This document shows, piece after piece, positions 1 to 58,200 of a DNA stretch of 58,920 nt. This DNA comes from a virus (lineage: Duplodnaviria; Caudoviricetes): positions 1-58,920 of IMG/VR virus record IMGVR_UViG_3300027782_000095; one strand, 5' to 3'. A program made the translations under genes and the position numbers. Numbering within the stretch: position 1 is the stretch's first letter; every line of letters starts with the position of its first letter. The notes below the pieces were generated by a model. The model saw nothing but the letters and a program-made list of their open reading frames with translations. It ran no database searches and was not told where the DNA came from.

Positions 1-1194
1 TCCAATCTCATGAGCATTAATAACCAAACCTGAGTTAACAGCTTCACGCTTGATAGCTTCGTTAACAAGCTTCATACCACCCAAACCAGTTTGAACAATC
101 AACTGACGTTGAGGATCTGGTCCTTTAAATTCAACCTTACCATTGAAGAAGTTGAATAATTCAGATTTAAACAAATCCAAATTGAAAGTACCACGATTAT
201 ATATACGCTTGTAAGAGTTATCTAATTGCTTCCAAAGACCCACTGATAAACGAATATCATCTGGACCATCTTGCTTAACTTTACCACCTTGTCCCCACAT
301 TAAGTAAGTTTCGATGTCATTAGCAATCTTAGTCAAATGAGCTGCTTCTAAAGTAGTCAAGAAAGAACGAGTTAATTGACCTGATTGGTATGCTTTTTTA
401 ACATAGTCCTTACCCATCTTAGAAGCCATATCTTCCAAGTTAGTAATAGAAGGATCAGGATTTTTGTCAAAGTTTCTCCAAAGTTCAATAACTGGAACTG
501 TACCATCAGCTTTCATTCCACCTTTCATCATCAAGTCAGCACGACTAGAGATTGAATAATGAACGTGAGCTTCAGCACCACCAACGTAGTTGTAGAACTC
601 TCTAAATCCTGCAGACACTGAACCAATGTCAGAGAATCTTTCGCCATACTCACCACGAGCAGAACCTTTTCTAAACACTCTTGTACCAACTGTAATGTAT
701 TTGTTGTCCAAGAATTTAGTGTTGTCGTTGTTTACCAACTGTACTGTGTATATGAAACCATCTCCTGCTGGGATAACATCATCAGCAGTGATGTACATTT
801 CCACACCATTGTACTTGTCATAAGTGATGATATCACCATGACCAAAAGAACGTTTGTTTAATTTAATCTTGAAGGTTTGACCATCAACGCCTTTAGTTGC
901 ATTCTGAGGATCAAGATCTTCAATGATGTAAGGTAAGTCCTGTGCTACAGGAATTTGCCATTTGTATTCACCACGTGCGTTGTCTACCATAATCACATTC
1001 TTACCACCAAAAGAAGACATTTGATAAAGAGGCATTTCTACCTTTTGTACCATTGCCCACAAATCAACTGGACCTAAGTCAGTTGGCTCTGCAGATTTTA
1101 GTAAGTTAGATAAGTGATATGAATCCACATGTGAACTCGTATGATACTGAGTGTCACGTAGGAATATACCATTGTTTAAAACTGGGGTTGCCAT
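1..1194 (-). CDS. Major capsid protein (crAss-like), 3' end outside the window
   Basis: Absent from the ORF track. ATG at 1194 gives MATPVLNNGIFLRDTQYHTSSHVDSYHLSNLL...GEYKWQ...FGHGDIITYDKY and the frame continues to base 1. Follows portal and scaffold-like genes, as in the crAss-like head module. Confidence 0.85.
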   Translation of the reverse strand, partial: MATPVLNNGIFLRDTQYHTSSHVDSYHLSNLLKSAEPTDLGPVDLWAMVQKVEMPLYQMSSFGGKNVIMVDNARGEYKWQIPVAQDLPYIIEDLDPQNATKGVDGQTFKIKLNKRSFGHGDIITYDKYNGVEMYITADDVIPAGDGFIYTVQLVNNDNTKFLDNKYITVGTRVFRKGSARGEYGERFSDIGSVSAGFREFYNYVGGAEAHVHYSISSRADLMMKGGMKADGTVPVIELWRNFDKNPDPSITNLEDMASKMGKDYVKKAYQSGQLTRSFLTTLEAAHLTKIANDIETYLMWGQGGKVKQDGPDDIRLSVGLWKQLDNSYKRIYNRGTFNLDLFKSELFNFFNGKVEFKGPDPQRQLIVQTGLGGMKLVNEAIKREAVNSGLVINAHEIG

Positions 1195-2497: not shown

Positions 2498-2533
2498 AAT
2501 ATATATTGGTTTTTTATGTGTATCTCTACATTA

Positions 2534-2542
2534 ATAATATAC
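2534..2542 (-). promoter_or_regulatory. Putative phage promoter core GTATATTAT (scaffold/capsid operon)
   Basis: The same 9-mer occurs ahead of other operons (12975-12983 minus, 39153-39161 minus, 19829-19837 plus). Confidence 0.5.
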
Positions 2543-2594
2543 TAATTTAAACTCTAAAAATTTACAAAATCTTTTTAAATCACACCTAAGCTAT

Positions 2595-2614
2595 GGATAA
2601 TAGAGCTATAACTA
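2595..2614 (-). repeat. 20-bp repeat TAGTTATAGCTCTATTATCC, copy 1
   Basis: Exact reverse complement of 19791-19810. Confidence 0.85.
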
Positions 2615-2616
2615 TT

Positions 2617-29390: not shown

Positions 29391-29708
29391 ATGGCAATCA
29401 ACAAAGTAGACTTAAAAGTCACACAACTAGTAAATGACCTTAATGAAGGTATGACATGGTTCAAGAAAGATGATCTTGGTTATGGTAGTATAGAAAATAA
29501 GTATGGTGCTAATGCTCCACAGATTATGGCTATTAGAAAACATCCAGCTCTTAAAGATGCTGAGACTAGTCTTACAATTTTTAACATTATAGACGACACT
29601 AAAAAAGAATCACATTCTGATCAAGTAATTGATGTTATGAATAAAACTAAACAAGTAGAAACAATAGAAACTGTTTCTGAAGCAGCAGACATCTTTGCAA
29701 ACCTTTAA
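29391..29708 (+). CDS. Hypothetical protein
   Basis: Probable start MAINKV. Confidence 0.6.
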   Translation: MAINKVDLKVTQLVNDLNEGMTWFKKDDLGYGSIENKYGANAPQIMAIRKHPALKDAETSLTIFNIIDDTKKESHSDQVIDVMNKTKQVETIETVSEAADIFANL

Positions 29709-29724
29709 TCAACCACACTTAGAC

Positions 29725-31050
29725 ATGGCAAGACAATTAAATAGACCTAGTCCTTCTCACAGTGCTACAACTTTTAATGTAGGATATAGAATGGTAGGTA
29801 ATGATGGTAGAACATGGATAGTTTCAGCTAATAGTGCAGGTGTTCAAAGATGGGTACCTGCAGGTGGTCCAAGACCATTAACACCAACACAACAACCAAG
29901 TATACAACAACCAATAACAACAAAACCCCTAAACATGGCAAAGACCAAGTCAATTACAAAAAAGACTACTCAAGAAGTACGTCACATTGAAACTTCCTTA
30001 ATTAACAAGGAAGAAGTATTTAAGATGCTAGCATTAGCAGAAGCTACAGGATTACCATTATTACTAATAGGTGAGCCAGGTGTAGCAAAGACTAAAACTA
30101 TTATAGAATATGCCAAAGCTTGGTTAAACAAGGATGGTAAGATGACAGCTGAAGATTTTCAGAACAAAATGTACATCTTAGAGACTGACGAGGGTACTAA
30201 AGCATCAGAGATTAAGGGTATGCCTGACTTAGGTAAGTTGTTCACTGAGAATACATATGAAGTGAATGCTCCTGTAGCAGAAGCTGATATTGTAATTATC
30301 AACGAGGTGGACAAAGCATCTAGTGCCATTAGAAATGCAATGTTAGGTGTAATGAACGAGAAGTTTTTATTCAATGGTAAGAATAAAATTCCATGTAAAT
30401 GGAAATTGTTTATTGCAACTTGTAATGAAATACCTAAAGATGAGAAAGACTCTCCATTCTGGGATAGATTTATGTTGAAAATGACTGTAAACAGAGTGTC
30501 TGCAGGTGATATGAGTAAGTACTATGCTAAAGGTGCACGTAACTATAAAGAAAGTTTTAAGATTGGCATTCCTAATCAAGCTGAATTAGATACTATAGAA
30601 ATACCTTCTAACAAGTTAGATAAGTATTTAGAAGTTGGCTATCAACACAGTTCAGATCGTACATTAACTTTTGTACCAAAACTAACTAAAGCTGTATCTT
30701 ATGTATGGGATATTAGTGTTGATAAAGCTCTTGTAAAAACTGCACAGATTATGATTAATCAATCTGCAGGAAGCGAACTTCAAAATAAACTAATGAGCCC
30801 AGAAATTAAGGCTGTTATGAGTAAAGTGGAAATGCTACACTCTCATAGTAACAACGAAGCTTTAGAGCTTGCAGTGGCTGAAATAGAAAGCTTGATTAAT
30901 ACATATGCATCTAGAGGTGTAATGGATAATGGTCAAGTGGAAGAAATAGAAGGCACTATGCAGTTTATTCTAAGTAATCATCCAGCTCGTACTGATTATC
31001 AAACATCAGAAGAGTTTGATAATCTAGTAGAAAGCACTAATCCATTTTAG
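29725..31050 (+). CDS. MoxR/RavA-like AAA+ ATPase with N-terminal extra domain
   Basis: GEPGVAKT, IINEVDKA, ATCNE and FWDRF motifs. Confidence 0.85.
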   Translation: MARQLNRPSPSHSATTFNVGYRMVGNDGRTWIVSANSAGVQRWVPAGGPRPLTPTQQPSIQQPITTKPLNMAKTKSITKKTTQEVRHIETSLINKEEVFKMLALAEATGLPLLLIGEPGVAKTKTIIEYAKAWLNKDGKMTAEDFQNKMYILETDEGTKASEIKGMPDLGKLFTENTYEVNAPVAEADIVIINEVDKASSAIRNAMLGVMNEKFLFNGKNKIPCKWKLFIATCNEIPKDEKDSPFWDRFMLKMTVNRVSAGDMSKYYAKGARNYKESFKIGIPNQAELDTIEIPSNKLDKYLEVGYQHSSDRTLTFVPKLTKAVSYVWDISVDKALVKTAQIMINQSAGSELQNKLMSPEIKAVMSKVEMLHSHSNNEALELAVAEIESLINTYASRGVMDNGQVEEIEGTMQFILSNHPARTDYQTSEEFDNLVESTNPF

Positions 31051-31069
31051 TTTTTTTTTCATATTTTAT

Positions 31070-31102
31070 CCCTGGGTGTTTCTACACCTGGGGTTTATTT
31101 TT
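31070..31102 (+). terminator. Hairpin/terminator between AAA and VWA genes
   Basis: CCCTGGGTG/CACCTGGGG imperfect stem plus T-rich tail. Confidence 0.5.
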
Positions 31103-31115
31103 AAATTAATTTATT

Positions 31116-32621
31116 ATGGCTAAAGAATATAAGAATGTATATACCATTCTTGAAAAAGTAAAAAAGGGTGAAATAGAAACCCATTATAAAGATAAAGATG
31201 GTTTATTTGGTAAGATTAATTTCTATAAGAAACCAGATCTTGTTAAACCCTATCTTCATTACATAGATGAGTGGAGATTAGAAAGCATTATGGACAGTCA
31301 TATGAGAGATAGTAAAATAGTTCAAGAAAGCTATGGTAAGTTTGCTAAAACTACTGACTACAAAAAAATTGATCCAAAACAACAACCTGATCAACAAGCA
31401 TTTTTTAGCAAATTTCAGGAAAACTATAAAAAGTTTCCTAAACATATGGCTAAAGACATCTTTAAGATGTTTTATAATCCCATAGAAAAGCTTGATTTTG
31501 AAGACAGGGATGAGAAGAACCATACTAAGTTTAAGTTCTTAGAAAGGGCTAATAACCCTGTAGGTAAGATTATGTCAGAACATAGCAATCTAAAGTCTGC
31601 TATATATGCACGTAACATCCTAGCTTATTTTATCACTCGTATGACTATTATGGATTTTGTAGATCCTAATGCATCTGAAGACATTAAGAATGGATTGAAT
31701 GGTCAATCTGATTTTGATAATGATGGTGTAGATAAAGCTATGAAACAAATGATGGATAGTACACAAGGTAAAAACATGTTAGATGATGCTATGCAGAAAG
31801 CTCAAGAGCTCTGTAAACAAATGGATGATGTAATGGATGGAGATGTTCAAGAACAAATGTTTGAAGCAGCTAATGAACCTGGAACAACTGGTGAAGCAGC
31901 CAAACTTAGTCCCAACTATCTTAGAACCATAGCAGCTAGTCTTGAAAACATATCTCTTTCTATGGGATCTCTTAAAGAAAAGATTAAAAAGCTAATGGAT
32001 AAGTCTGCTAGTTATTTTAGTTCTAAAAAAAAGACCATATATGAAGATCTTTTTAATTCAGATAATATAGCTGGATTAGAAGAGTATGAGATGTTACATC
32101 CCAAGCTTAGAAAGATATTTATAGAAGATGTTAATGTTAAAGACACTAAAAGTGTAGGTAAAATTGATATTTATATAGATAGATCAGGAAGTATGAGCTC
32201 TCATTGTGGTGTACAAAATGCAAATGGAAACAGTATAAGCAAAATGGATTTTTGTAAAGCTTTTACAGCTAAGCTTAAAGCCATGGATATGCTTAATGAT
32301 GTCTATACATTTGACAATAAAGTGAAGAAAGGTAAAAATGACGTTATATCCATAGCAATGATGGACTGTGGTGGTGGTACAACAATTGATAATGCAATTC
32401 AAAGTATAGAAAAGAATGGTAGAAATGCATTAATAATCACTGATGCAGAAGACAGCTGTTCTATTTATTCTGATAAAGCATTTTTTATTGGTGTAGAAGG
32501 AGCTAATTTTAACTATTTTAATGAAATCACTATTAAAGAATACTCTGACAAAGGTCAAGTGGTAGTATTTAATGGTGAAACTATACTAAAAGTTAATGAA
32601 TTTGGTCAAATAAGTAAATAA
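31116..32621 (+). CDS. VWA (MIDAS) protein, ViaA-like partner of MoxR
   Basis: DRSGSM, GGGTTI and ITDAED motifs. Confidence 0.85.
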   Translation: MAKEYKNVYTILEKVKKGEIETHYKDKDGLFGKINFYKKPDLVKPYLHYIDEWRLESIMDSHMRDSKIVQESYGKFAKTTDYKKIDPKQQPDQQAFFSKFQENYKKFPKHMAKDIFKMFYNPIEKLDFEDRDEKNHTKFKFLERANNPVGKIMSEHSNLKSAIYARNILAYFITRMTIMDFVDPNASEDIKNGLNGQSDFDNDGVDKAMKQMMDSTQGKNMLDDAMQKAQELCKQMDDVMDGDVQEQMFEAANEPGTTGEAAKLSPNYLRTIAASLENISLSMGSLKEKIKKLMDKSASYFSSKKKTIYEDLFNSDNIAGLEEYEMLHPKLRKIFIEDVNVKDTKSVGKIDIYIDRSGSMSSHCGVQNANGNSISKMDFCKAFTAKLKAMDMLNDVYTFDNKVKKGKNDVISIAMMDCGGGTTIDNAIQSIEKNGRNALIITDAEDSCSIYSDKAFFIGVEGANFNYFNEITIKEYSDKGQVVVFNGETILKVNEFGQISK

Positions 32622-32660
32622 AAATAGGGCCTCTATAAACATAGGGGCCCTTTTCTTTTT
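32622..32660. terminator. Bidirectional terminator between convergent operons
   Basis: AGGGCCTCTAT/ATAGGGGCCCT stem flanked by A and T tracts. Confidence 0.7.
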
Positions 32661-32707: not shown

Positions 32708-32830
32708 CTATCTACCTTGACCTACATATTTCTTTGGTCGAGAAGAATGTTTATTATAAGACTTTTTAGCCTTTCCTGACTTACGTTTACCAAATGTTAT
32801 CTTTCTTAAGTCTCCTGCTGATTTAGCCAT
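32708..32830 (-). CDS. Small highly basic peptide (40 aa)
   Basis: Manual translation MAKSAGDLRKITFGKRKSGKAKKSYNKHSSRPKKYVGQGR. Confidence 0.6.
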   Translation of the reverse strand: MAKSAGDLRKITFGKRKSGKAKKSYNKHSSRPKKYVGQGR

Positions 32831-33018: not shown

Positions 33019-33708
33019 TTAATCCCACCAAAGGGTAACATTAGCGTTTCCTGCTGCAAATTCAAAGTCATAAGATATAAGAGCTGTAGCTAAATCTACT
33101 GTAGGCACTGATCCATAAGCTTCCAATACAAGACTATAGTTAATTTCTCCTGTAACAGGATCTGCTGGTCCATAACTATACATCATTATTTTAACACCAT
33201 ATAAAGTATTATATGCTGCAGCATCTATATCCCACATTTGAGCACCATCTGCTAAAGGAGTGGTTGTAACATCTAGAGTGGGATCAAAAAAAACATCATT
33301 ACTTTCTACAGCTGCCACCATTCCTGTTATTTTACCAGGAAATAAAACAGGGCCTCCAAATATTTCATTAGTAGGTATAATTTTAATTGTACCAAGATAT
33401 TGACTAATTACAGAATTTCCACTATACTGAAGTACTCCTCTCACTCTATAACTATTTACAGTGACAGCTGGAATAAAACCCATACCTTGACCACTAGGAT
33501 ATTGATATAAAGGACCTGCATTAAATAATGTAGATTCTGGATACCATACAAAAGGATAGTCAAGAGTATGTATTTCTTGATTAGCTTTACCTGTTTCTAC
33601 ATCATCTACCAGTCTATTAATGTGACCAAATCTTGCAAATTCTGTATCACCTTTTATTTTGCCTAATGCCCTATCAGGACTTGAAGGCTTAAATTTTCTT
33701 ATTGCCAT
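33019..33708 (-). CDS. Putative virion structural protein
   Basis: Short N-terminal anchor-like segment (FARFGHINRLV) plus a beta-rich body; lies in the late operon. Confidence 0.5.
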   Translation of the reverse strand: MAIRKFKPSSPDRALGKIKGDTEFARFGHINRLVDDVETGKANQEIHTLDYPFVWYPESTLFNAGPLYQYPSGQGMGFIPAVTVNSYRVRGVLQYSGNSVISQYLGTIKIIPTNEIFGGPVLFPGKITGMVAAVESNDVFFDPTLDVTTTPLADGAQMWDIDAAAYNTLYGVKIMMYSYGPADPVTGEINYSLVLEAYGSVPTVDLATALISYDFEFAAGNANVTLWWD

Positions 33709-33718
33709 TGTTATAATT

Positions 33719-34693
33719 TTATAAACTATTTAAAAATGCTGTTGTTAAATCTGTCCAGCCTGATACAGAGTTGTACTTTTGAAAAGTAGTAACTTCTACA
33801 TATGCATTATATCCATGGTCTACATTGATAAACGTACCATTACAATAGAATACATCTACATTAGCTCCTACATTAGCTGCTATAATACCTGATGCTCCTG
33901 TTAAGAATGTATTTGATGCTATTCTAATTTGTTCTGTACAATATTTCATAGAAGCTCCATACAAAGATGGTGTTGCTACAAAGTTGTAAGAAGCTAATAT
34001 AGTAGCTCTAAAAGCATGTAGTATAGAACAAAGTTTATAATGCTGATCATTATTAGCAAACACTCCTGTATTATATACTGGAGCAGATGCACTACCAATC
34101 ACCCAAGTAGCAGCTGTTGCTACAGCACCACATGTGTTATCTGTTAAAGACTCAGCTTGAGTTTTACCTTTTCTCCATATACGTCCTACATTACCAACTT
34201 GTGACACACCTATATGAGGCATATTAACTAAAAATAAAGCTCCATTAGTTGTAATATGAGAAGCCCATGCTTGTAGTCCTAATACACCTGTATGAGGATA
34301 ACCAGCTAATCCTGCACCAAAGAATGGTCCAAGAAAACTAGACTGCTGTGCAGAAGTCTGTCCTAGATTGTCAACATGCTCTATAGCATTAACATCATCA
34401 GAACATACGTCTGTACTAAGAAGCACATCTTTATAACTGTATCCTTGAGTTTTAATAAACTCTTTAGCAGCTTCAGCAAATCTTAAAGCTGGTACAGCAT
34501 CTTCATATTCACTTTGAACAGTGACTGTATAAGATGCTGGATTAGGTGGGAAAACAGAAGTTGTACAACACAAGTCTGCTGGAACTTCGTTCCATGTACT
34601 AGGGCCATTTGGAAATGAACCACTAGTTAAGATAAGACTACCAGGTACTATCTTTCCCTGTTTAGAATATCTTACAAATGCTCTTTTTTTCAT
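33719..34693 (-). CDS. LCIB/C-like (theta carbonic anhydrase fold) domain fused to an N-terminal virion-anchor-like peptide
   Basis: C97-S-D-D, GLAGYPHTG..G..A..SH146, PH160IG...G.VG...R.G and C188GA match the LCIB/C Cys-His-Cys signature. Confidence 0.75.
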   Translation of the reverse strand: MKKRAFVRYSKQGKIVPGSLILTSGSFPNGPSTWNEVPADLCCTTSVFPPNPASYTVTVQSEYEDAVPALRFAEAAKEFIKTQGYSYKDVLLSTDVCSDDVNAIEHVDNLGQTSAQQSSFLGPFFGAGLAGYPHTGVLGLQAWASHITTNGALFLVNMPHIGVSQVGNVGRIWRKGKTQAESLTDNTCGAVATAATWVIGSASAPVYNTGVFANNDQHYKLCSILHAFRATILASYNFVATPSLYGASMKYCTEQIRIASNTFLTGASGIIAANVGANVDVFYCNGTFINVDHGYNAYVEVTTFQKYNSVSGWTDLTTAFLNSL

Positions 34694-34700
34694 AGTTTAT

Positions 34701-34772
34701 TTATTTTTTAGGTTTTGAAATAGGTCTTGGCTTACCACAGCCACAACCATATATGTTATTATTTTTAGTCAT
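34701..34772 (-). CDS. Micro-peptide with GCGCG motif (23 aa)
   Basis: Manual translation MTKNNNIYGCGCGKPRPISKPKK; TAATG-coupled to the upstream gene. Confidence 0.4.
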   Translation of the reverse strand: MTKNNNIYGCGCGKPRPISKPKK

Positions 34773-35080
34773 TATACTTCTTTTTTATCAGACTTCTGTG
34801 TACCAAAATAGTAACTAAAAATCATGAGGGTTAATGTTTTTATGAGTTCAAATAAGTTTTCATTCTGTTGTACAGACAGCAATGGCATACCAAAAGCTAT
34901 CACCTTATCCACTACAAACACCCCTACTAATGCAGCAAATACTAATAGAATAAACCTAACTAGTAAGTCTTTAGTGTGGTTAATAAATAGCTTGTTGACA
35001 TAGTAGACACTTGCTGTGATAAAACACATACCCATTATTACACCAAGTATTACAACCCATAAATGTGGAGAGTTAAACAT
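34772..35080 (-). CDS. Membrane protein, holin-like (3 TM)
   Basis: Three hydrophobic segments and a YYFGT C-terminal motif; adjacent to the endolysin. Confidence 0.55.
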   Translation of the reverse strand: MFNSPHLWVVILGVIMGMCFITASVYYVNKLFINHTKDLLVRFILLVFAALVGVFVVDKVIAFGMPLLSVQQNENLFELIKTLTLMIFSYYFGTQKSDKKEV

Positions 35081-35676
35081 TAGACAAGTAGTTTATAGTA
35101 TTCGTTAAAGTGTTTTATTCTATCTGCAAGACCTATTGTACCACCATTTACCCTTTTTGTTACTGCTGTTACAGTAGCATCATCAGCACCTTTATCACAA
35201 ATAGCCCAAAGACCATTTTTATTAAAAAAGAAAGCTGCACTAGATAATGGGTATTTAGTAGCCACTAAATCTGGATTTGTTAAAATATCATCTTCTACAG
35301 TTTTATCAAAACTTGTATAATTGTCTTTTCCTGTCAATTGGATGTAACCACGACCTCTAAACTTATACCCATCACCACTAGCTTGATTACCATTACCCAT
35401 ACGATTAGCATATACAATATTGGCAATCTTTTCAGGCTTACGTTGATATTCTGCAGCACTTATAGCTGTGAAGTATTTCTTAAAGATAGTCTGTAACCCA
35501 CTAGCACTATAGTTTAAATTTTCTGAAACAGCTTTAAATCCACCTGATTCATGCCCACATTGGGCTAAGAAGTGAGCTAAACGTAATGTGGTTGTAATGT
35601 TAAATTTAGAAGCAGTGTCAGCAATTTGAGCAATTACACTGTCAGGAATATGTCCTTTTAGTTTATTTATATCCAT
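35080..35676 (-). CDS. Endolysin, glycoside hydrolase family 19
   Basis: FLAQCGHESGGF, ENLNYS, RGRGYIQLTG and VNGG..GL.DR motifs. Confidence 0.93.
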   Translation of the reverse strand: MDINKLKGHIPDSVIAQIADTASKFNITTTLRLAHFLAQCGHESGGFKAVSENLNYSASGLQTIFKKYFTAISAAEYQRKPEKIANIVYANRMGNGNQASGDGYKFRGRGYIQLTGKDNYTSFDKTVEDDILTNPDLVATKYPLSSAAFFFNKNGLWAICDKGADDATVTAVTKRVNGGTIGLADRIKHFNEYYKLLV

Positions 35677-36314
35677 TATTTATGAAGTTTAATTTTCCAA
35701 AATGATGAGACACCATACTGAATTTGTCCACCTTTATCTATACCTGCAGAAATACCAAATATTTTATCACTTTTACTTTTTAATAACAATCCTATATTAA
35801 TTTGATTTATAGGAGTTAATTGACTACCTTCTAATGATCCCCCAAAATATACTTGGTTTCTTTTTTTCTCAGGTATAATAATAGTTTCTTTTATAATTGG
35901 ATACTTTAAACTATAATGAGTGGACCTACCAGTTAATAAGTTTCTACTCACAGTGTCTGTAATATATACATGACCTATTGAGTCTATTTTAATGCTATCA
36001 CTAAATATGTTTTTAGCTAAAAGTTCTTTAACAAGTTCTTCATACTGTTTAATTAACCCTATATAACTTGTATCTGGTAGATATTCTGTGTTCCATCTAT
36101 CTATTGGCACAGCATAAGGTTCTGTTTTAATCAACTGAGGCTTACTATTAATAGTGTTATTTTTTTCAATCCAAGTTGTATCTCTTATTATCTTAAGACC
36201 AGTAGATGGAATATGATTGCCCCCACATCTTTGTAAAAGAATAATGATAAGAAGAGCAAATATTAATAGCTCAGATAAACTAATTTTATTGAGGCCCTTG
36301 AGTATCATCAGCAA
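35676..36314 (-). CDS. Spanin-like membrane protein
   Basis: N-terminal TM with Cys and a C-terminal amphipathic beta segment; between holin and endolysin. Confidence 0.5.
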   Translation of the reverse strand: MLMILKGLNKISLSELLIFALLIIILLQRCGGNHIPSTGLKIIRDTTWIEKNNTINSKPQLIKTEPYAVPIDRWNTEYLPDTSYIGLIKQYEELVKELLAKNIFSDSIKIDSIGHVYITDTVSRNLLTGRSTHYSLKYPIIKETIIIPEKKRNQVYFGGSLEGSQLTPINQINIGLLLKSKSDKIFGISAGIDKGGQIQYGVSSFWKIKLHK

Positions 36315-36492
36315 AAAAGTTTGAAAAGAATTTAGCTACACCAGCAGTAATCATGACTACAATGGCTATAGTTTTATAATCATTAACAAAAGCAAAACTA
36401 GAAAGTAACATAGCAGATCCTAATAAAGAATCTGCTATTTTCCTAATTTTCTTAGGAGTGGGAGCCCAATATGATTTTAGACAGAACTTCAT
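36286..36492 (-). CDS. Putative holin (2 TM)
   Basis: YWAPTPKKIRKIADSLL followed by two TM segments. Confidence 0.55.
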   Translation of the reverse strand: MKFCLKSYWAPTPKKIRKIADSLLGSAMLLSSFAFVNDYKTIAIVVMITAGVAKFFSNFFADDTQGPQ

Positions 36493-36794: not shown

Positions 36795-38732
36795 TTAAGC
36801 ATTTATATAGTAGTTTAAAAACTTACCATTCCAAGCACTATCATACATTAGTAAAACAGGTAGACCATCGCTATCCATTAGTATATCTTTTGAAACATCT
36901 TCCATATAAATATAATTTGCTGATGATAAATCATATGAACCAGTTAAATCTCTAGCTGTTATTTTCTTTATATTTAATCCTGAATTAAATGGACCAGTGG
37001 GACTAAAATTAAATATAGAGTTTGTTAATTTATTATAATCAATTTTACAAGTTCCTAATATATTATATGCTATTGAACTACTCATTTGTAATGTATTAAA
37101 ATTAATAGTACTAGATGATTCTACACCATTTAAACTAATATATGAAGCATCTAAATTATTAAATATCATTTTTCCACCATCTATGATATTATTACTAACA
37201 ATTTGAGATGCATTTGTTAATACGTTATTACTCAATGCATGACCTGATTCATAAATAGTATTACTACTCATTTGGCTATAGGATATACTATTTTCATCTA
37301 TATAACTACCATTATCTAAAGTGTTACTTTGTAAAGGCGAATGATCTAATATGTTATTTCCAATACCACATCCATTACTTAAATAATTATTATTAAAGTC
37401 TGAGTTAGATAATTTATTACCTTCTATTCTACAGGTGCCTCCTCCATTTGCATACGCTGTATTAGTCATTACATTGCTTTTATATAAATTATTATTTATA
37501 AAAGTTGTTTCTAACAATTTATTGACTCTAAAACTACTTCTATCAAAATGATTATTTCTAGTTTGTTGACCAATAATAACATTCTCAGTTAAGCCACTAT
37601 ATTGTATTATATTTTCCTCTAGTGATCCATATGAAAAACTATTACTAATAATACCACTTTTATCAATTTGATTATATTGAAAAGGAGCGTAATAAAATAC
37701 ATTATTGCTTATAAAAGCATTGTCAAGTGTATTGTATTGTACAGCAGTATTAGGTGAAGCAACTTCATTATAAAATAAAGTAGAATTTATTTGACAATAA
37801 TTTGTTAAAGTATTATCATAAATATAACCAGCTCCATTAAAATTTATACATTCAAATTCACTGTCTATAATATGATTTCCAGATAAACCAGTATTTGAAT
37901 TAGTATCATATTCATTTCCCCATTGAAAAGATTTAATAGGATTGTTATAAAAATAATTAATTATATCATCAGCTGTAACACTCACTATATTATTAGCTTT
38001 ATCTTTACGAGATGTTATACGATCTGCATCAAAATCATATGTAATAGGATCTAACACTTCATAATACTCAGTAGAGGTAAATGGTACTTCAGTCCAATGA
38101 GCAGGGTCAAGATTAAAAATATCATTTGGTACTCCTATAGTACCATCAACACTCACCCATTGCTTTCCACCCCATATAACCCAATCATTTATACTATAAG
38201 TTGGAACAACGTTTATTGTAATTGAAAACGACAAACCACTAGGATTAATAGTAACAGTATTTATAAGTCCACTACTCCAATCTCCACTTACATATTGTAT
38301 AAGATTAGATCCCATATAAAGTCCAATATCACCTTGATCACTTATTAAAGTATTTATTATTGTTGCTTCACTAGGTCCTGGTAAGTAATTATATTGCCAA
38401 TTAGTATATTCTACTTCTATTAAATTATTATAAACAGGGTATAAATCATATTTAGGATTGTAAAAAATACCATCTCCTTCTTTAGCTAGAGTGTTAGTGG
38501 TAAGTGCTTTAATAAAAACTACAGTTCCTCCATATAAAGCTACATCTGCGTCTAAAATTTTATAAATAGTTCCAGGTACCAATGTACTAGTATTTCTTAA
38601 ATCAACTAGGGCTTGACGAGTGATTGCAACAATAGGTGTACCACCACCATTACAACATGAATCTATTTTACAGCATAATTGCTTATACTTTTTAGTTAAC
38701 CAGTCTAGTTGTTCAAATATTCCTCTTGCCAT
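36795..38732 (-). CDS. Tail fibre/spike with Asn-rich beta-helix repeats
   Basis: Many 11-residue N-x-(L/I)-x-N-S repeats; Cys-rich N-terminal anchor (KQLCCKIDSCC). Confidence 0.7.
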   Translation of the reverse strand: MARGIFEQLDWLTKKYKQLCCKIDSCCNGGGTPIVAITRQALVDLRNTSTLVPGTIYKILDADVALYGGTVVFIKALTTNTLAKEGDGIFYNPKYDLYPVYNNLIEVEYTNWQYNYLPGPSEATIINTLISDQGDIGLYMGSNLIQYVSGDWSSGLINTVTINPSGLSFSITINVVPTYSINDWVIWGGKQWVSVDGTIGVPNDIFNLDPAHWTEVPFTSTEYYEVLDPITYDFDADRITSRKDKANNIVSVTADDIINYFYNNPIKSFQWGNEYDTNSNTGLSGNHIIDSEFECINFNGAGYIYDNTLTNYCQINSTLFYNEVASPNTAVQYNTLDNAFISNNVFYYAPFQYNQIDKSGIISNSFSYGSLEENIIQYSGLTENVIIGQQTRNNHFDRSSFRVNKLLETTFINNNLYKSNVMTNTAYANGGGTCRIEGNKLSNSDFNNNYLSNGCGIGNNILDHSPLQSNTLDNGSYIDENSISYSQMSSNTIYESGHALSNNVLTNASQIVSNNIIDGGKMIFNNLDASYISLNGVESSSTINFNTLQMSSSIAYNILGTCKIDYNKLTNSIFNFSPTGPFNSGLNIKKITARDLTGSYDLSSANYIYMEDVSKDILMDSDGLPVLLMYDSAWNGKFLNYYINA

Positions 38733-51729: not shown

Positions 51730-51742
51730 ACTCCCTTTTTTT
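51712..51742. terminator. Bidirectional terminator between convergent operons
   Basis: AAAAAGGGAG/CTCCCTTTTT stem. Confidence 0.65.
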
Positions 51743-54700
51743 ATAATCCTGTTTGTTTCTTATAGTATTCTATTCTATTTATATTACTCAAGAATGGAAG
51801 TATTTTTGTTACTTTCAATATTGTTCTTTCATTGTCATACATCTCTTTACCATTCTTATCTTGCACGCCTAAACTGTGATAGGTTACAGCTTTGATAGCA
51901 GCTCCCCAGTTTTTAGCTGTTTGTATTACAGGGAATACATTTTGTTGCAATTCAGCTGCAGAACCAATACTCATGTAATAAAGCATGTCTCTATTAAGAT
52001 CATGTAATTGTCTTAATACAAGTAGATTATAAATCTTTTTATCTTTATCATCATCTGGAGCTGCTGCTTTAAGAAGAGCATAAGCTATAAGAAGTGTTGT
52101 TATGATTTGCATCTCTTTCACCATCTTTTTGAAGTTACTCAATTGCATTTCATCATCAATCCCTGGGTTGGCTCCCATAAGAGCCTTTACCATCATTGGA
52201 ACAATCTGTAGCTTTTTCTCTACCACCATTCTTCCAAAAGTTCTATAATATCCTTCTTCTTCTCTTTGCAATAAAGCATCAGTGTGACGAGGATCAAAAC
52301 GAACTCCAAGAGTTTCAGGAAGCCAAGACTTAAATAGAATAAGCATTCTACCAACAGCATTGCTTTTAACCTTTAAAGGTACATCTCTACCAGTGGCACC
52401 ATGTAATTTATTAGCAAGTTGTTTGTATTTAAGTAGGTTATCCATATAGAAATCTTCAAATGATTTACCACCATTTGCTTTTTCATCCCATTCACCATAC
52501 TTTTCCACATCATATTCTCTATCTTCTGTAAGACTATCATAAAAATCAACCTTTTCTCCTTTAGATGTTACTACTTTCTCTTTTTTCATAGCTGCTAAAA
52601 TCATCTCAGCTTTAAAATGAAAATCACCAGAAGATAACCAAGTGTATGCTTTAGGAAGCATTTCTCTAAACTTATCTATTCCAGTTTTCTTATTAACTAA
52701 TGTTTTTAAGAACATACCATCTTCACCTTCAGCAAGACTAGCATCAGCCATAAGACCAAAAATAATTTTAGTGTTTTTTGTTTGGAACTTACCAAAAGAC
52801 CAATATCTAGCAGAAGATTCAATAATTGTTTTATTAGCCCACACTAAATCAGCTCTACTGAAATCTCTTCCCCCATGTGAATGAATTCTATTATTAATTT
52901 TACCTATTAGTACATTTCGTATAGCTGAGAAAGGTGAGAATCCTAAACTTAATAAACGAGTGTTAGATATAGCTGTATCAATTGTTTTTGTAAGAGAGAA
53001 GTTTCTTCCTCCTAGATTGTAATATTCTTTTTCTTTAACTTTAGCTTCTTCTTCTAACTTAGTTCTTTCATCATCTGTTAAACCTTCATTTTCTAATTTA
53101 GTGTTAATAACTTTGATATCTTCACTAAGTTGTTGAGCTTTTTTAGCATCAGCACTGTTCCATAATCCTAGAGCTGCTAATTCTTTCCAGTCGTACCAAA
53201 GTCTATCAGATTTCCAAAGTTCGTCTTCACTCTTAATACCATAGAAACTTCTAAGTACAGTGTGTTCTACAAGAGATTTAATACGAGAAGCATCTTTGTC
53301 TACAGCCTCTAATTTACCAAGCTTTTTGTTTTTCTCATAAGAACCTTCAGTGCCTTTGATAATATCAGTGATGGTATCCACCTCAGCTTTTATTGTATTC
53401 TTATGTTTATACACAAGAGACATATCACTCATTAGTTTTGCCATTAACACTAAATCTTTAGATCTTTCTTCTACAGGGACATTTTCATTAATGAACTTAG
53501 CTTCAAAACCACGTCTTTCTTTTTTTGTAAAAGCTCCAATATCTTTCTTTGTTTCAAAGTTGGACACTGTTAATGCATTTACAAACCAGTCACCCAATCC
53601 AGCAACACTTTCTTTGAGATTGGTTAATCCATATTCTTTTACAGCACGATCTGCTAATACAGGTAGGAAGTCAGGACCTAGCTCATCAATTTCATCTTGA
53701 GGAAACCACTTAAGAGTGTCTTGAATAAAACCATTCCACCAGTTGTAAAACTTAAGAAGCTTAGGATCATTTAATATTTTAGCAAAGTTCTCATCATAAT
53801 ACTTAGTGGGAACACCTTTAATTTGTTTAGCAGCAATTAAATAAGAAAATTTAGCTCCACCATATGCTGTAATTTTTTCTGCACCAAAAAACTTTTGGTC
53901 CATATACTTTAATGGATTGTTAAGATCATCATATTGATCCACTTTCATATTTACAAACTCATCAAAACTCATATCCTGTGGTACAATAGCAGGATTTGTT
54001 ACAGCTTCGTTTTCTATATCATATCTATACTCTTCCTTTGACACCTCAAACTCTTCATATTTCTTTTGAGACTCAGCTATAATAGCATCTATTTCTTCTT
54101 TACCAAACCCTAATTGTCTCATTTTATTAATCTCAAAAGTTCTTTGAGAATCATTATAATCATTTGGCTTTAAAAAAACAAGTGAATTAAAAGCAATAGT
54201 GTTTGACTCATTCCATGCATTGAATCTTTGCCATGCTTTTTTAATAAGATCTGCATCACCATTAGCACGCTCTATATCTTTACGAAGCATACTGTTATTA
54301 ACTTTCTTAGCAGCTGCAAATTCAGGACTATATCTTGATACAAGAGACATTTGCTTATTACCATCTTTATCCTCATTAATTCTAAAGAAGATGTCAAAAC
54401 CATTCTTTTTTATTTCAGGATGATCTTTAATAGGAGCAAATTGATCATCAATCTCAGCTTGATTTTTGTTATGCTCCATGTTAATCTTCATGTTAACTTT
54501 CTTTATAATGAAAGCTAACTTATTAGGTAGAGCAACACCAGTGGTGCTAAGTTCACGAGCCCATTCTGTAAACCAAGATGTATCGACCATCTTAGTTATA
54601 TCAGCTTCACTTAATCCTGTAGACTCTTTTACAAGCTCTATAGCAATTCTACGAGACTTTTTACTAAGATCAGAATATTTAGCATCTACTTCCTGCACTC

Positions 54701-55220
54701 TATTACGTGTATCCTCATTCTTAACATCCACTGAACTCTCAATACCTAACACTTTATATAAGTTTGACCAGGTTTCTACAATGTTATTTGCAAACTGCAA
54801 GTCGTTATAGGTGATATCAGTGTTACTATACATTGCTTCAACTAAATCACTATCAATCATAGCTTGAGATAGTAAAAAATCTAACTGCTTATCAATATCA
54901 GCATCGTTAAGATCACTAATACTTTTTGATATATCACTCATTATCTTTCTATACTCTGCTTTTTTAGCAAACTTTTCAGCTTTAGAAAGCTTAGGGTTAT
55001 TATTAATGGCCTGAAGCATATTGTTTGCATCACGATATCTTTGCTTAAGCATTAGATTACTATCAGCTAATAACTCAGATACTTTCTTTTTCTTAGCTGT
55101 GGCAACAGACTTGTATATATTATTAAGTCCACCAAACTCTGAAAAACCATCTTTTGATAGTTCTTTGATTAAGTTTTCCTTACTGAATTCTCTACCTTTG
55201 TATGTGTATTCACAAGCCAT
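51741..55220 (-). CDS. Large virion ejection (cargo) protein
   Basis: 1159 aa helical protein with C-terminal hydrophobic helices (GRMLILFKSWLP; IITTLLIAYALL), typical of podovirus ejection proteins. Confidence 0.6.
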   Translation of the reverse strand: MACEYTYKGREFSKENLIKELSKDGFSEFGGLNNIYKSVATAKKKKVSELLADSNLMLKQRYRDANNMLQAINNNPKLSKAEKFAKKAEYRKIMSDISKSISDLNDADIDKQLDFLLSQAMIDSDLVEAMYSNTDITYNDLQFANNIVETWSNLYKVLGIESSVDVKNEDTRNRVQEVDAKYSDLSKKSRRIAIELVKESTGLSEADITKMVDTSWFTEWARELSTTGVALPNKLAFIIKKVNMKINMEHNKNQAEIDDQFAPIKDHPEIKKNGFDIFFRINEDKDGNKQMSLVSRYSPEFAAAKKVNNSMLRKDIERANGDADLIKKAWQRFNAWNESNTIAFNSLVFLKPNDYNDSQRTFEINKMRQLGFGKEEIDAIIAESQKKYEEFEVSKEEYRYDIENEAVTNPAIVPQDMSFDEFVNMKVDQYDDLNNPLKYMDQKFFGAEKITAYGGAKFSYLIAAKQIKGVPTKYYDENFAKILNDPKLLKFYNWWNGFIQDTLKWFPQDEIDELGPDFLPVLADRAVKEYGLTNLKESVAGLGDWFVNALTVSNFETKKDIGAFTKKERRGFEAKFINENVPVEERSKDLVLMAKLMSDMSLVYKHKNTIKAEVDTITDIIKGTEGSYEKNKKLGKLEAVDKDASRIKSLVEHTVLRSFYGIKSEDELWKSDRLWYDWKELAALGLWNSADAKKAQQLSEDIKVINTKLENEGLTDDERTKLEEEAKVKEKEYYNLGGRNFSLTKTIDTAISNTRLLSLGFSPFSAIRNVLIGKINNRIHSHGGRDFSRADLVWANKTIIESSARYWSFGKFQTKNTKIIFGLMADASLAEGEDGMFLKTLVNKKTGIDKFREMLPKAYTWLSSGDFHFKAEMILAAMKKEKVVTSKGEKVDFYDSLTEDREYDVEKYGEWDEKANGGKSFEDFYMDNLLKYKQLANKLHGATGRDVPLKVKSNAVGRMLILFKSWLPETLGVRFDPRHTDALLQREEEGYYRTFGRMVVEKKLQIVPMMVKALMGANPGIDDEMQLSNFKKMVKEMQIITTLLIAYALLKAAAPDDDKDKKIYNLLVLRQLHDLNRDMLYYMSIGSAAELQQNVFPVIQTAKNWGAAIKAVTYHSLGVQDKNGKEMYDNERTILKVTKILPFLSNINRIEYYKKQTGL

Positions 55221-58200
55221 TTAGCATTTAGTTTTAATATTTAAGAATCTAGTTATATCAGCAAAGTTATCATTAATATTTTTAGTTTTTGCTTCCTGTG
55301 CAACAGCAATAGATCTTTGTTCTGTAGCTACTTCAGATGAATTTCTTGATTGAATAAGACCAACAATGTTTGTCAATCCTTCTTTTAGAACAGAATTATC
55401 TTTTACATTAATACCTAATGCTTTTAAAAGATTACCAATTAAATCCATAAACTTTTCAAAGATAGACTTTTCTCCATCGTATGTAGTGTTATTCATAAAG
55501 TCTTGGAATCCTTGGTCAGTCATAATCATACTTACAAAATCATGAACACTTGTTAATCCATAGTAGAGTGATTTATCAGAAGCAGACAAGTAACCATCTG
55601 TTTTCATTTGATCTTTAGCTTTTTGTAAAGCAGCAGCATGTTGAGGATCCATCATCATTTTATTATGCACAGCATCATAAAGGTTATTAATGTTTTCTAC
55701 ATACTTTCTTTGCTCAACACTAAGTGTCTCAGGTTTTGCATTTAAAAGTTCAGCAGTGATGTGATGCATAAACTCATGCATAAACACTTCATGTAACTTG
55801 TCTCTTATTGCATCTCCATCTAAAGCATCACCAACAGCTAATTTAGGATTAATTGTTATAGTTTTAGTATTACCATTATACATTCCTGGATCAGTTATCT
55901 TATCATCCATCACTATAGTGACAGGAGCCACTATTCCAGACTTAGCTATTGCTGTAATAACTTGTTTATTAAAAGCATTGGCATTTGAATAAACTCTGTT
56001 TAAGAAACCTTTAATATCAGTGATTGTCTTTTGACCCTGAAACATACTATTCACCCACTTATTAATATACTCAGTGGCACTATATTGCATTGCTAATTCT
56101 AGTGGATTAACCACTTCATTTGCTGCATAGCTATTCACTTCATTATTTGATGGGCTTTTTACTTCTTGAGAACCAGGAATAATACTACTTTCAGGTTTAA
56201 CTTCTTGACCATTATCTGATATAAAGCCTTTAAATACTTCTTGGTTATGTGATATATTAGAACCAGGACTCTTAATAATTACTAACGAACCACTAGTTCT
56301 TGTAACAGCAACATACATTGAGCTAAATATATCATCTTGGTTTACACTAGGATGTGCTCTGTTTTGTTTAATGTTATAATCCCCAACAATTACATTCTTA
56401 ATACTATTACCTTGAGCTGTATGAGAAGATCCTATATAAGATGGTGTGAAAGGTAGTTTTCCTTTACCATCGTGTAGCATTTTAATATCTTCTTTTGCAG
56501 TTTTAAAATCACCATACTGCATATCAAATGTGGCTATCACTTTTCCTGTAGACTTTTGTTTTATAGTGATTCCTTTTTGCATTTTGTTTTCATATCTACC
56601 AAGATCAACAGCAATATCTAACACTTTGCTATATCCTCTTAATCTATCTTGTCTATTATATAATAGAATTTGCTCCATATCAACCATTACACTTTTATCT
56701 ATATATTGAGCTATTGTGTAAGGAAGAATTTCTTTAAGAGATGTTTGAGTTTTAACAATATCCATCACTTTAAATCTTGCTCTAGGTTTGACTACACCTC
56801 CAGCAATAGCATATTCACCATCAATGTTGTCTATTTTTCTTTCGTCTAGTAAAGCTCTCACTTCATCAGATGTAGGTGTGTACATAAAGTCAGAAGCTTT
56901 CATCTCTACACCATCTGTAAACTCTACGTAATCTCCATTAGAAAAATTACGATGTGCTACAGAGTCAATCTGTTTTCCTATTTTAGCAAAATATGCTTTA
57001 CGAATTTTATCTGAAATAGCAATAGTAGTTGCATTTTCTACATTGTTATAATGCACCCAGAACATTCCATAAGGATTATTATTATCCTTTAAAAAATCTG
57101 TATAATCATCAATAACTCCTACAGTGTTATCTACAACAAGTATGTTTTCGCTTGACTTGCTTGTAAGCTTGTCGTAAGCATCAAATGAAAGTTGTTTAGC
57201 TTTCTCACCTTTTTTAGTGCGTTCAATGTTCTCTATGATTTGATTACCAATTGCATCATAAATAGCGTGTAAGTTTTTATTACTTGAACGCATCACCTGC
57301 GTAAGCTCTCTTGTTTTACTCTTATCAAGTAGTAATGTTGCAGATATAATACCTTTATTTACATCAGCGTTTTGTTGTTCTTTAATAGGACCAAGCTGAC
57401 GATAGTCACCCATGAAGATAAATATAGGCATTTTATTTGTTACACCTTCTTCTAAATCAGTGTTAATACGTGTAAGCATATCTTTAATATCTTGCACTTT
57501 AATCATAGAGCTTTCATCTACAATTATTATATCAGGAACACTAAATGCTTTTTTATATTTAATGTGCTCTAAATACTCCTCAGTTGTCATCATATCTAAC
57601 TCTGAGCTACCATATCTTATTTTATTTCTACGAGTGGCTGAAGGTATTGTATTCACTTTACCATCATTAGCTTTTTCAGAATCTAGTCCTAATGACTCCT
57701 GAAGTACAGTGGCTGCAGTGTGACTAGGAGCTAAGTACATTACATCATTTCTTCTATATTTATTACCAGTGCTTTCTAATCCTTTTATAATAGCTCTAAT
57801 AACTGTTGTTTTACCAACACCTCCTCTACCTGCAAGTCCTATCATATTATCCCACATCACTTTAGGAATAACACCTGTAAACTTCTGTGTAAGAGGGTCT
57901 GTAAAAGAAACTGTATTCTCTAAGTCTTCAGCACGAACATTAGTTCTTTCTTTAAGTATTCTCTCAACATTTCCTTTTATAAAGTTAAAAGCTTCTTGTT
58001 GACCATCATTCATTAAAAACTTAGTGGTGTCATCTTCAAATATCATCATGTTGTTTTCATTAGATCCTTCAGGTACACTAATTTTCTTTTCACCTGGAAC
58101 CACCACTTCTTTAACTTTTGTTTCTGGATCATAAAGATCTTGATCTAACTTGTCACCTAAAGCAGCATGAACTTCTTGCATAAGTTTAGGATCAGTTATT

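Follow-up and report, generated by a model that had tools for sequence, protein, structure and literature searches.

Two kinds of head fibre have been described on the capsids of the crAss-like phage PhicrAss001, the trimeric gp21 (HFT) and the dimeric gp29 (HFD) (PMC10172136; PDB 7qof/8ckb). Residues 1–38 of gp21 bind a pocket of the planar hexons and residues 1–58 of gp29 bind the winged hexons, and the C-termini of both proteins are small domains thought to bind external molecules; the anchors were without a structural neighbour, and uncharacterized analogues were predicted in other crassviruses (PMC10172136). Judged by architecture and gene position, these fibres are the closest known analogue of the protein presented here, which is encoded at positions 33719..34693 on the minus strand of the IMG/VR virus record IMGVR_UViG_3300027782_000095, a stretch of 58,920 bp (hereafter the window) with a CheckV completeness of 46%. 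The gene has its stop codon at 33719–33721 and encodes 324 aa from an ATG which is the first possible start, since the stop-to-stop frame covers 33722–34696. Its product was found to combine a short N-terminal unit, termed module A, with a carbonic anhydrase domain of the LCIB type.

Carbonic anhydrases of the alpha, beta and gamma classes with conserved active sites have been reported from viruses and were read as auxiliary metabolic genes (bioRxiv 10.64898/2026.01.21.700432); the text of that preprint, as far as it was accessible, mentions LCIB 0 times and no structural fusion. In contrast to those metabolic enzymes, the one encoded here is of the LCIB type and is fused to module A. It also differs from the LCIB family as known from algal CO2-concentrating mechanisms and some bacteria in being phage-encoded and in possessing a phage-specific N-terminal module. 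No paper linking LCIB or LCIB_C_CA to phages or viruses was found in full-text searches, and among the papers listed on carbonic anhydrase and bacteriophage virions no virion-associated carbonic anhydrase was seen. An earlier description of an LCIB enzyme behind an exchangeable phage N-terminal module was likewise not found.

The LCIB domain and its predicted active site

On the evidence of family profiles, solved structures and a fold model, residues ~54–324 (33722..34534, minus strand) are a full LCIB or theta-type beta-carbonic anhydrase domain. The protein matched the Pfam family LCIB_C_CA (PF18599) with 86.4 bits, well above the curated cut-off of 25 (E 2.2e-24). This alignment spans only profile positions 3–121 of 223, and the homologues in other phages align over positions 9–220. 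Among PDB chains, phmmer identified 6kfs (E 3e-12) and 5b5y (E 6e-12), and a 50-sequence family profile matched the same two chains at E 6e-18 and 8e-17, respectively, as well as 9vzj, 5b5x and 5k5w. An AlphaFold2 (AF2) model of the 324-aa protein, built on the 50-sequence family alignment, had a predicted local distance difference test (pLDDT) score of 79.4 and a predicted template modelling (pTM) score of 0.75, and was unreliable at residues 41–47 and 94–130. All seven Foldseek matches in the PDB at E<=0.001 were LCIB-family structures (TMt 0.62–0.76), the top five (PtLCIB4, 6kfs) having a TMt of 0.75–0.76 and an E of ~1e-11, and ordinary beta-carbonic anhydrases ranked below the LCIB chains (E>0.05). 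An earlier note on this DNA, made from the letters alone, had called the domain as LCIB/theta-type and proposed the comparison with LCIB_C_CA. The call is borne out, as hidden Markov model, fold and ligand alignment all agree, and the motifs which it listed (C97-S-D-D, GLAGYPHTG at 128–136, H146, P-H160-I-G, C188-G-A and the CC pair at 42–43) are all present at those residues. The PHROGs database has no family for the protein.

With the solved members of the family (PtLCIB4 5b5y, 6kfs, 9vzj, CrLCIB 5k5w and LCIC 5b5x) the phage protein shares a common fold (TMt ~0.75) and the positions of the Cys/His/Cys set. It also keeps an Asp at the second residue past the first Cys, the His that corresponds to H88 of PtLCIB4 and a conserved Arg. 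However, it is only ~20% identical to them and has an extra low-confidence loop at about residues 100–127.

Beta-class carbonic anhydrases are described as binding Zn by two Cys and one His, with the dimer as their basic unit in general (PMC5876011). In the phage protein, C97 (codon 34403..34405), H160 (34214..34216) and C188 (34130..34132), all on the minus strand, lie opposite the Cys, His and Cys of both PtLCIB4 and 6kfs in the alignment and are the predicted Zn ligands, C97 being the first. C97 aligns with the Cys preceding S47 of PtLCIB4, and H146 (34256..34258, minus strand) with H88. The residues altered in the mutant PDB chains 5b60 (S47R) and 5b5z (H88A) fall opposite S98 and H146 in the profile alignment, which fixes the equivalence of C97, S98 and H146 to PtLCIB4; S98 is the Ser of wild-type PtLCIB4 and not the Arg of the S47R mutant. 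By counting, H160 (from H88) falls at PtLCIB4 position 102 and C188 at position 126. The Zn ligands of PtLCIB4 we take to be C46, H102 and C126.

Conservation was assessed over 148 distinct phage LCIB-domain proteins of at least 280 aa with five N-terminal architectures. D99, H146, H160, R174 and C188 were each kept in all 148 of these homologues, C97 in 147 and S98 in 144. Given this conserved site, it is likely that the LCIB domain is an active Zn enzyme.

Module A and its passengers

In phage receptor-binding and decoration proteins a conserved N-terminal anchor is followed by an exchangeable C-terminal domain. The proteins bearing module A resemble these in their horizontally exchanged distal domains, in the presence of several paralogues per genome and in their location in a hypervariable cassette. 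They differ in that the anchor is an unannotated 44-aa module and that a metalloenzyme of metabolic type is among the domains exchanged.

Module A comprises residues 1–44 (34562..34693, minus strand) and is predicted to be a three-stranded beta module with a basic N-terminus, a VPGSL core and a terminal CC. The strands lie at residues 4–9, 21–23 and 33–37, and the module folded alone gave a three-stranded sheet (AF2, pLDDT 87.5). It is followed by a Pro/Thr (P/T)-rich segment at about residues 44–53, of which residues 45–53 (34535..34561, minus strand) were annotated as a linker; pLDDT falls below 50 at residues 41–47.

When viral contigs were searched with the whole protein, one of the loci found matched residues 1–43 only. 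Proteins at that locus and its neighbours share the first ~44 residues and then continue into unrelated sequence, some of them with two tandem copies. A profile of module A (A1), built from 11 copies and searched against 1.84 billion cluster representatives, matched 481 clusters (50% identity) at E<=1e-3, 194 at E<=1e-10 and 14 at E<=1e-30; the counts of position, copy number and passengers that follow cover the best 150 of these 481 clusters. The first copy starts within the ten N-terminal residues in 149 of the 150, the module is single in 113 and double in 37, and the proteins are 43–766 aa long. The search with the N-terminal segment alone which the earlier note had proposed was thus positive, with hundreds of phage proteins having other passengers. 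This wide occurrence fits a docking or anchor role and disfavours a fortuitous extension. That residues 1–44 are a separate domain, as had been claimed, is supported by their own fold, the low-confidence stretch at 41–47, the P/T segment and the recurrence on other proteins.

A CC pair is present in at least 90% of canonical module A copies and is missing from diverged copies on LCIB proteins of 309–325 aa, so that the terminal CC is not essential. As a required feature it was dropped for this reason; of the N-terminal domain "ending in CC" with a P/T linker in the earlier note, the description stands for this protein and the CC as a conserved requirement does not.

The Pfam families found as passengers were Fib_succ_major (10), BspA-type LRR_5 (9), LRR_8 (5) and Laminin_G_3 (4), with YDG (2), LRR_4 (2), DUF285 (1), PQQ_2 (1) and two other single cases being rarer; most passengers are without a Pfam family. 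A set of 61 module proteins from fetched loci had LCIB eight times, Fib_succ_major six times, and LRR_5 and Lcl_C once each. PHROG matches on module-bearing proteins were to families of unknown function and to one "structural protein with Ig domain". Module A itself was covered by no Pfam or PHROG family in the window protein or in the 61 + 150 module-bearing proteins scanned, and its profile gave nothing above noise against PDB sequences (best E 0.21). The mean Cys content of 140 passengers was 2.8% compared with 1.06% for 38 long window frames, a rough control as these are stop-to-stop frames. By sequence, the passenger families appear to be extracellular-binding types, including lectin-like (concanavalin A-like), leucine-rich repeat (LRR) and Fib_succ_major domains. 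Because the anchor carries such domains in sister phages, the enzyme would seem to occupy an interchangeable binding-tip slot.

No further copy of module A was found among the 405 open reading frames (ORFs) of the window, which represents ~46% of the genome. GTDB representative genomes, scanned with one peptide pattern only, had no module A, and this LCIB type was found among them on a single 1.6-kb contig of a metagenome-assembled genome, a search of which found nothing. Among the cultured phages of INPHARED there was no match to the LCIB protein (tblastn) or to the surrounding 12 kb (megablast), and tblastn with a two-module protein matched in its Fib_succ_major part only.

Phage identity and setting of the LCIB gene

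The window begins with the N-terminal 398 aa of a Crass_capsid-type major capsid protein (1..1194, minus strand), cut by the window edge. The full-length capsid protein of a related locus, L098, matched Pfam Crass_capsid (E 8.5e-31) and is 91% identical to that of L076, which in turn is 90% identical to the window fragment. The phage is therefore crAss-like, and its portal protein matched PhicrAss001 gp20 (E 6e-26). By terminase, the nearest cultured relatives are crAss-like Bacteroides phages and Flavobacterium phages at ~25% identity, and no cultured relative at megablast level was found for the 12-kb region searched. The host is probably a member of the Bacteroidota, and the phage system is AT-rich and probably Bacteroidota-type. 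The L098 capsid protein (1515–3131, from genome G004) had 3,141 relatives at E<=1e-20, many of them on 120–130-kb contigs, so that the phage group appears to be very common in public metagenomes.

The LCIB gene lies in a minus-strand block which begins with a 112-aa membrane protein, variable large proteins and membrane proteins of 68 aa and 212 aa, and continues with a GH19 endolysin, a 102-aa membrane protein, the LCIB gene, a 229-aa gene and two tiny genes. The membrane-anchored 212-aa and 68-aa lysis-block proteins (35676..36492, minus strand) are conserved in related loci, the GH19-type endolysin (35080..35676, minus strand) has a PHROG match with an E of 5.8e-69, and the 102-aa protein directly upstream of the LCIB gene (34772..35080, minus strand) is holin-like by weak Pfam hints only. 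Directly downstream, the 229-aa protein (33019..33708, minus strand) begins with a second N-terminal unit of ~40 residues, termed module B. An extremely basic 40-aa protein (32708..32830, minus strand), without a Pfam family, ends the variable cassette here and in nearly all related loci. Beyond it, a GC-rich hairpin with an 11-bp stem (32626..32651, unstranded) stands between convergent operons and is the likely end of the transcription unit holding the LCIB gene, which forms one minus-strand unit with the endolysin and the membrane proteins, no terminator-like site lying between them. The gene had been placed by the earlier note "among fibre and lysis genes" of a "tail/lysis operon". The endolysin and membrane proteins upstream and the downstream module-B gene, of a family that includes collagen-repeat fibre proteins, agree with this placement, but no tail gene was identified, and the operon is one of lysis and variable fibre-like genes.

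In the 50 related loci compared, the 112-aa gene at one end and the 40-aa basic gene at the other bound a conserved frame whose interior is variable: the endolysin type changes, module-A genes number from one to four, and the 229-aa family is present in 30 of the 50. At 41 module A loci, arrays of one to four genes were found in one variable cassette together with lysis and module-B genes. Members of the 229-aa family share only their first ~40 residues, that is, module B, and their bodies include collagen, beta-helix-like repeats and Fib_succ_major. The collagen-repeat member matched PHROG tail-fibre and tail-protein families (E down to 4e-55) and Pfam Collagen, and apart from this collagen part no Pfam or PHROG annotation was found for module B; the collagen triple-helix passengers imply trimers. 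ESM Atlas matches of the 229-aa neighbour had scores of <=0.85 and are leads only. Module-B proteins are 145–528 aa long, with up to five paralogues per locus (e.g., L002 4352–11630; L024 470–2047).

This setting resembles that of PhicrAss001 in several respects. In the PhicrAss001 record the gp29 gene is located between holin-like gp28 and carboxypeptidase gp30, and here, likewise in a phage with a crAss-like capsid, the LCIB gene stands beside a holin-like gene and the endolysin. A short N-terminal anchor (44 aa here, 38–58 aa there) is followed by a small distal domain, and there are two anchor families per phage, modules A and B corresponding to gp29 and gp21. The pairing of a trimer with a dimer also has its parallel in the collagen passengers of module B (trimers) and the beta-carbonic anhydrase passenger of module A (a dimeric fold). 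In contrast to the PhicrAss001 fibres, the passengers here are more varied and include an enzyme, the genes occur in multi-gene arrays and the anchors may be in tandem; and whereas the PhicrAss001 anchors bind hexons, capsid binding is proposed here from architecture and gene position. As no anchor homology was detected, the 324-aa protein is not classed with the gp29 or gp21 families, and the parallel is one of architecture and position. No phmmer homologue of PhicrAss001 gp36, gp27, gp28 or gp30 was found among the proteins of the fetched loci, and no 7qof chain was among the structural matches of module A, a domain which is very small for such a comparison.

The placement of LCIB differs among relatives of the phage. 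Three genomes with portals 68–79% identical to that of the window, namely G002 (127 kb) and G004 (121 kb), which are complete with terminal repeats, and G003, which is 96% complete, have module-A genes in the lysis cassette only and no LCIB domain. Five others (G005–G009, three of them at least 98% complete), with capsid proteins 67–90% identical to the window fragment, possess exactly one LCIB gene each, which belongs to the head module and lies, a few kb downstream of the capsid gene, between conserved genes of 338 aa and 233 aa. Canonical module A was absent from all three head-module LCIB records searched (G005–G007). A profile of 23 head-module LCIB N-termini matched 143 of 150 canonical non-LCIB module proteins at E<1e-3 (87 at E<1e-5), and among 405 window frames it matched the LCIB ORF only. 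By these profile matches, the N-termini of the head-module LCIB proteins are a diverged module A.

Small module-B-like genes stand directly after the capsid gene in three of four head modules (L098, L076 and L068; not L062). Homing-endonuclease-like genes were observed in the head-module slots of LCIB and module B (L062 4402–5268 and 7909–8685; L076 2654–3595), of which L062 7909–8685 has a PHROG homing-endonuclease match and the other two are named by resemblance; their presence suggests that these slots are insertion hot spots. All four of these relatives also have a conserved basic, Gly/Lys-rich head-module protein of 81–91 aa (L098 6415–6660, L076 8186–8428, L062 8654–8926 and L068 6553–6822).

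An LCIB domain with the same catalytic residues was also found on at least three further N-termini, in other phage lineages. In the unrelated phages of loci L081 and L083 the LCIB gene is flanked by the gene for the major head protein (phrog_138; E 8e-67 and 9e-71, respectively) and that for the head-tail adaptor, and adjoins a PhoH-like gene. The first 80 residues of the L083 protein matched 42 proteins at E<=1e-3, of which 18 are LCIB fusions; the remaining 24 share only its first ~30 residues. Nine of these 24 were examined and have short serial repeats after the shared N-terminus, and one repeat-rich match is named "trimeric autotransporter adhesin" by its source. Short serial repeats are typical of phage fibres. 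On these sequence matches, the N-terminus of the L083-type LCIB protein is shared with repeat-rich, probably fibrous proteins. In INPHARED the N-terminal 81 residues of the proteins at L081 and L083 had no match. A 203-kb viral contig (L089, 6602–8665) has two adjacent LCIB paralogues, one with a 130-aa N-terminal extension and one with none; the latter (285 aa) has Ala in place of Ser98 and an altered GLAGYPH motif. It is the only unextended phage LCIB seen, the others having module A or another shared N-terminus, in five architectures.

Several other genes of the window were noted. A plus-strand pair (29695–32621), which converges with the cassette and is conserved in related loci too, consists of an ATPase (PHROG ATPase families, E 3e-17) and a 501-aa protein with a DxSGS-type motif and no Pfam family; it resembles an AAA + vWA-like pair. 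An Asn-rich protein of 645 aa (36795–38732, minus strand) is repetitive, has two CC pairs near its N-terminus and no family match, and may be another variable surface protein; its slot is taken by unrelated proteins of 220–680 aa in sister phages. Two very large minus-strand genes (51741–58889) encode proteins of 1159 aa, without a family match, and 1222 aa, with a PIF1/Dda-like helicase core.

Possible site and role of the protein

It is proposed that module A plugs the protein into the particle, most likely at a capsid hexon pocket as for the PhicrAss001 head fibres, and that the short P/T linker joins this anchor to a distal domain which would be a complete LCIB-type Zn carbonic anhydrase, probably dimeric and catalytically competent. 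Docking on the particle is suggested by the domain architecture, the gene position and the analogy with PhicrAss001, and since the phage is crAss-like and the operon is without tail genes, a head (capsid) fibre is the likelier site. We regard it as fairly probable, by these sequence features and this analogy, that module A attaches the protein to the outer face of the virion, most likely on the capsid. When this is combined with the higher probability given above to an active enzyme, the full statement, that the protein is a virion-anchored fibre (on the capsid or at another site) with an active Zn carbonic anhydrase tip, stands at about an even chance. The benefit could lie in local CO2, bicarbonate or pH chemistry at the host envelope or in particle- or phytoplankton-associated microenvironments, or in the recognition of anionic ligands through the Zn site. 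A complex prediction of the capsid protein with module A scored 0.00 and carries no weight either way.

Several observations weigh against this proposal. The complete close relatives G002 and G004 are without LCIB, which is therefore dispensable, and the slots of the LCIB gene also hold homing endonucleases and a PhoH-like gene, so that a position near structural genes is unspecific. Module A showed no relationship to gp29 or gp21 (hhalign probability 0.3% each; no phmmer match), and portal and capsid alone are detectably homologous to PhicrAss001, which makes the lysis-cassette parallel an analogy and not orthology. A fold search with module A stayed at noise level (best VIA-align Z 2.9, best Foldseek E 1.4); a weak lead was to the N-terminal 42 residues of the cyanophage Pam3 fibre chain 7ypx_a (Z 2.4, root mean square deviation 2.2). 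The stretch of the AF2 model which is unreliable at 94–130 contains C97, and it is not obvious what a diffusing particle would gain from an extracellular carbonic anhydrase.

The LCIB fold could be displayed on the virion as a binding module and not as an enzyme, its Zn site or the fold itself recognizing an anion, a polysaccharide or a mineral surface. This would agree with the lectin-like, LRR and Fib_succ_major domains that fill the slot in sister phages, and Chlamydomonas LCIB and LCIC are reported to have the fold and the Zn motif and yet to be inactive in vitro (PMC5876011). Yet the catalytic set is near-invariant in the 148 homologues and five architectures, which exceeds the needs of a scaffold; the invariant residues include the non-ligands H146 and R174, and Ser98 is as in wild-type PtLCIB4, so that a role in binding only is considered unlikely. 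An intracellular auxiliary enzyme, supplying bicarbonate or adjusting pH and with module A as an oligomerization or regulatory appendage, would be in line with the viral carbonic anhydrases of the alpha, beta and gamma classes that have been read as auxiliary genes (bioRxiv 10.64898/2026.01.21.700432), with the dispensability of LCIB in close relatives and with its occurrence in hyperplastic slots beside PhoH-like and homing-endonuclease genes. It would leave unexplained, however, why module A is found on adhesin-type, Cys-rich passengers and why LCIB is fused to a repeat-rich, fibre-like N-terminus in other lineages. The domain does not stand alone, being fused to shared N-termini in five architectures, and the one unextended copy (L089) adjoins an extended one; the auxiliary role is given only a small probability.

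Another explanation is that module A is a packaging tag by which proteins are loaded into cargo zones of the capsid or tail for ejection. A shared N-terminal tag with a basic N-terminus on variable bodies would suit this, and crassviruses are described as holding several MDa of cargo proteins (PMC10172136); the same paper, however, describes the known crAss cargo proteins as large (60–277 kDa) and broadly conserved, unlike a variable cassette (PMC10172136). The lectin-like, Fib_succ_major and BspA-LRR passengers and their high Cys content suggest an extracellular role instead. Short cleavable targeting peptides also differ from tandem folded domains of 44 aa, and internal cargo is held to be quite improbable. 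Lower still is the probability of a soluble factor, made late and released at lysis, whose module A would attach to the envelope of the host or to debris instead of the virion, perhaps masking receptors or conditioning the surroundings. Cell-wall-binding proteins typically have binding modules in tandem, and the gene shares one minus-strand unit, with no terminator-like site between, with the endolysin and membrane proteins. On the other hand, no endolysin of the related loci carries module A, the head-module relatives keep the LCIB gene away from the lysis genes, and gp29 of PhicrAss001, a true head fibre (PMC10172136), has its gene inside a lysis cassette.

Returning to the virion-anchored enzyme, a broader version would be that a widespread group of environmental crAss-like phages of ~120–130 kb and at least one unrelated lineage bear an active Zn carbonic anhydrase in many copies on the virion exterior, as an interchangeable fibre tip, with module A as an unrecognized universal plug for crassvirus capsids; this we hold to be possible, though with somewhat more doubt than belief. 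Module A itself is an unannotated and very common N-terminal unit which occurs as paralogue arrays within a genome. It probably marks the surface proteins that are exchanged within an abundant, uncultured group of phages, and offers an easy way of locating host-interaction genes in their genomes; use as a natural display scaffold is also suggested. The LCIB family is extended to viruses, with an active site which is fully conserved. A virion with this enzyme on its surface would carry inorganic-carbon chemistry, unlike the depolymerases and lysins usual on phage surfaces, and, were the enzyme active, the particle itself would catalyse the interconversion of CO2 and bicarbonate at the surface of the host or of the particle, which raises a possible role of CO2, bicarbonate or pH in adsorption in natural waters.

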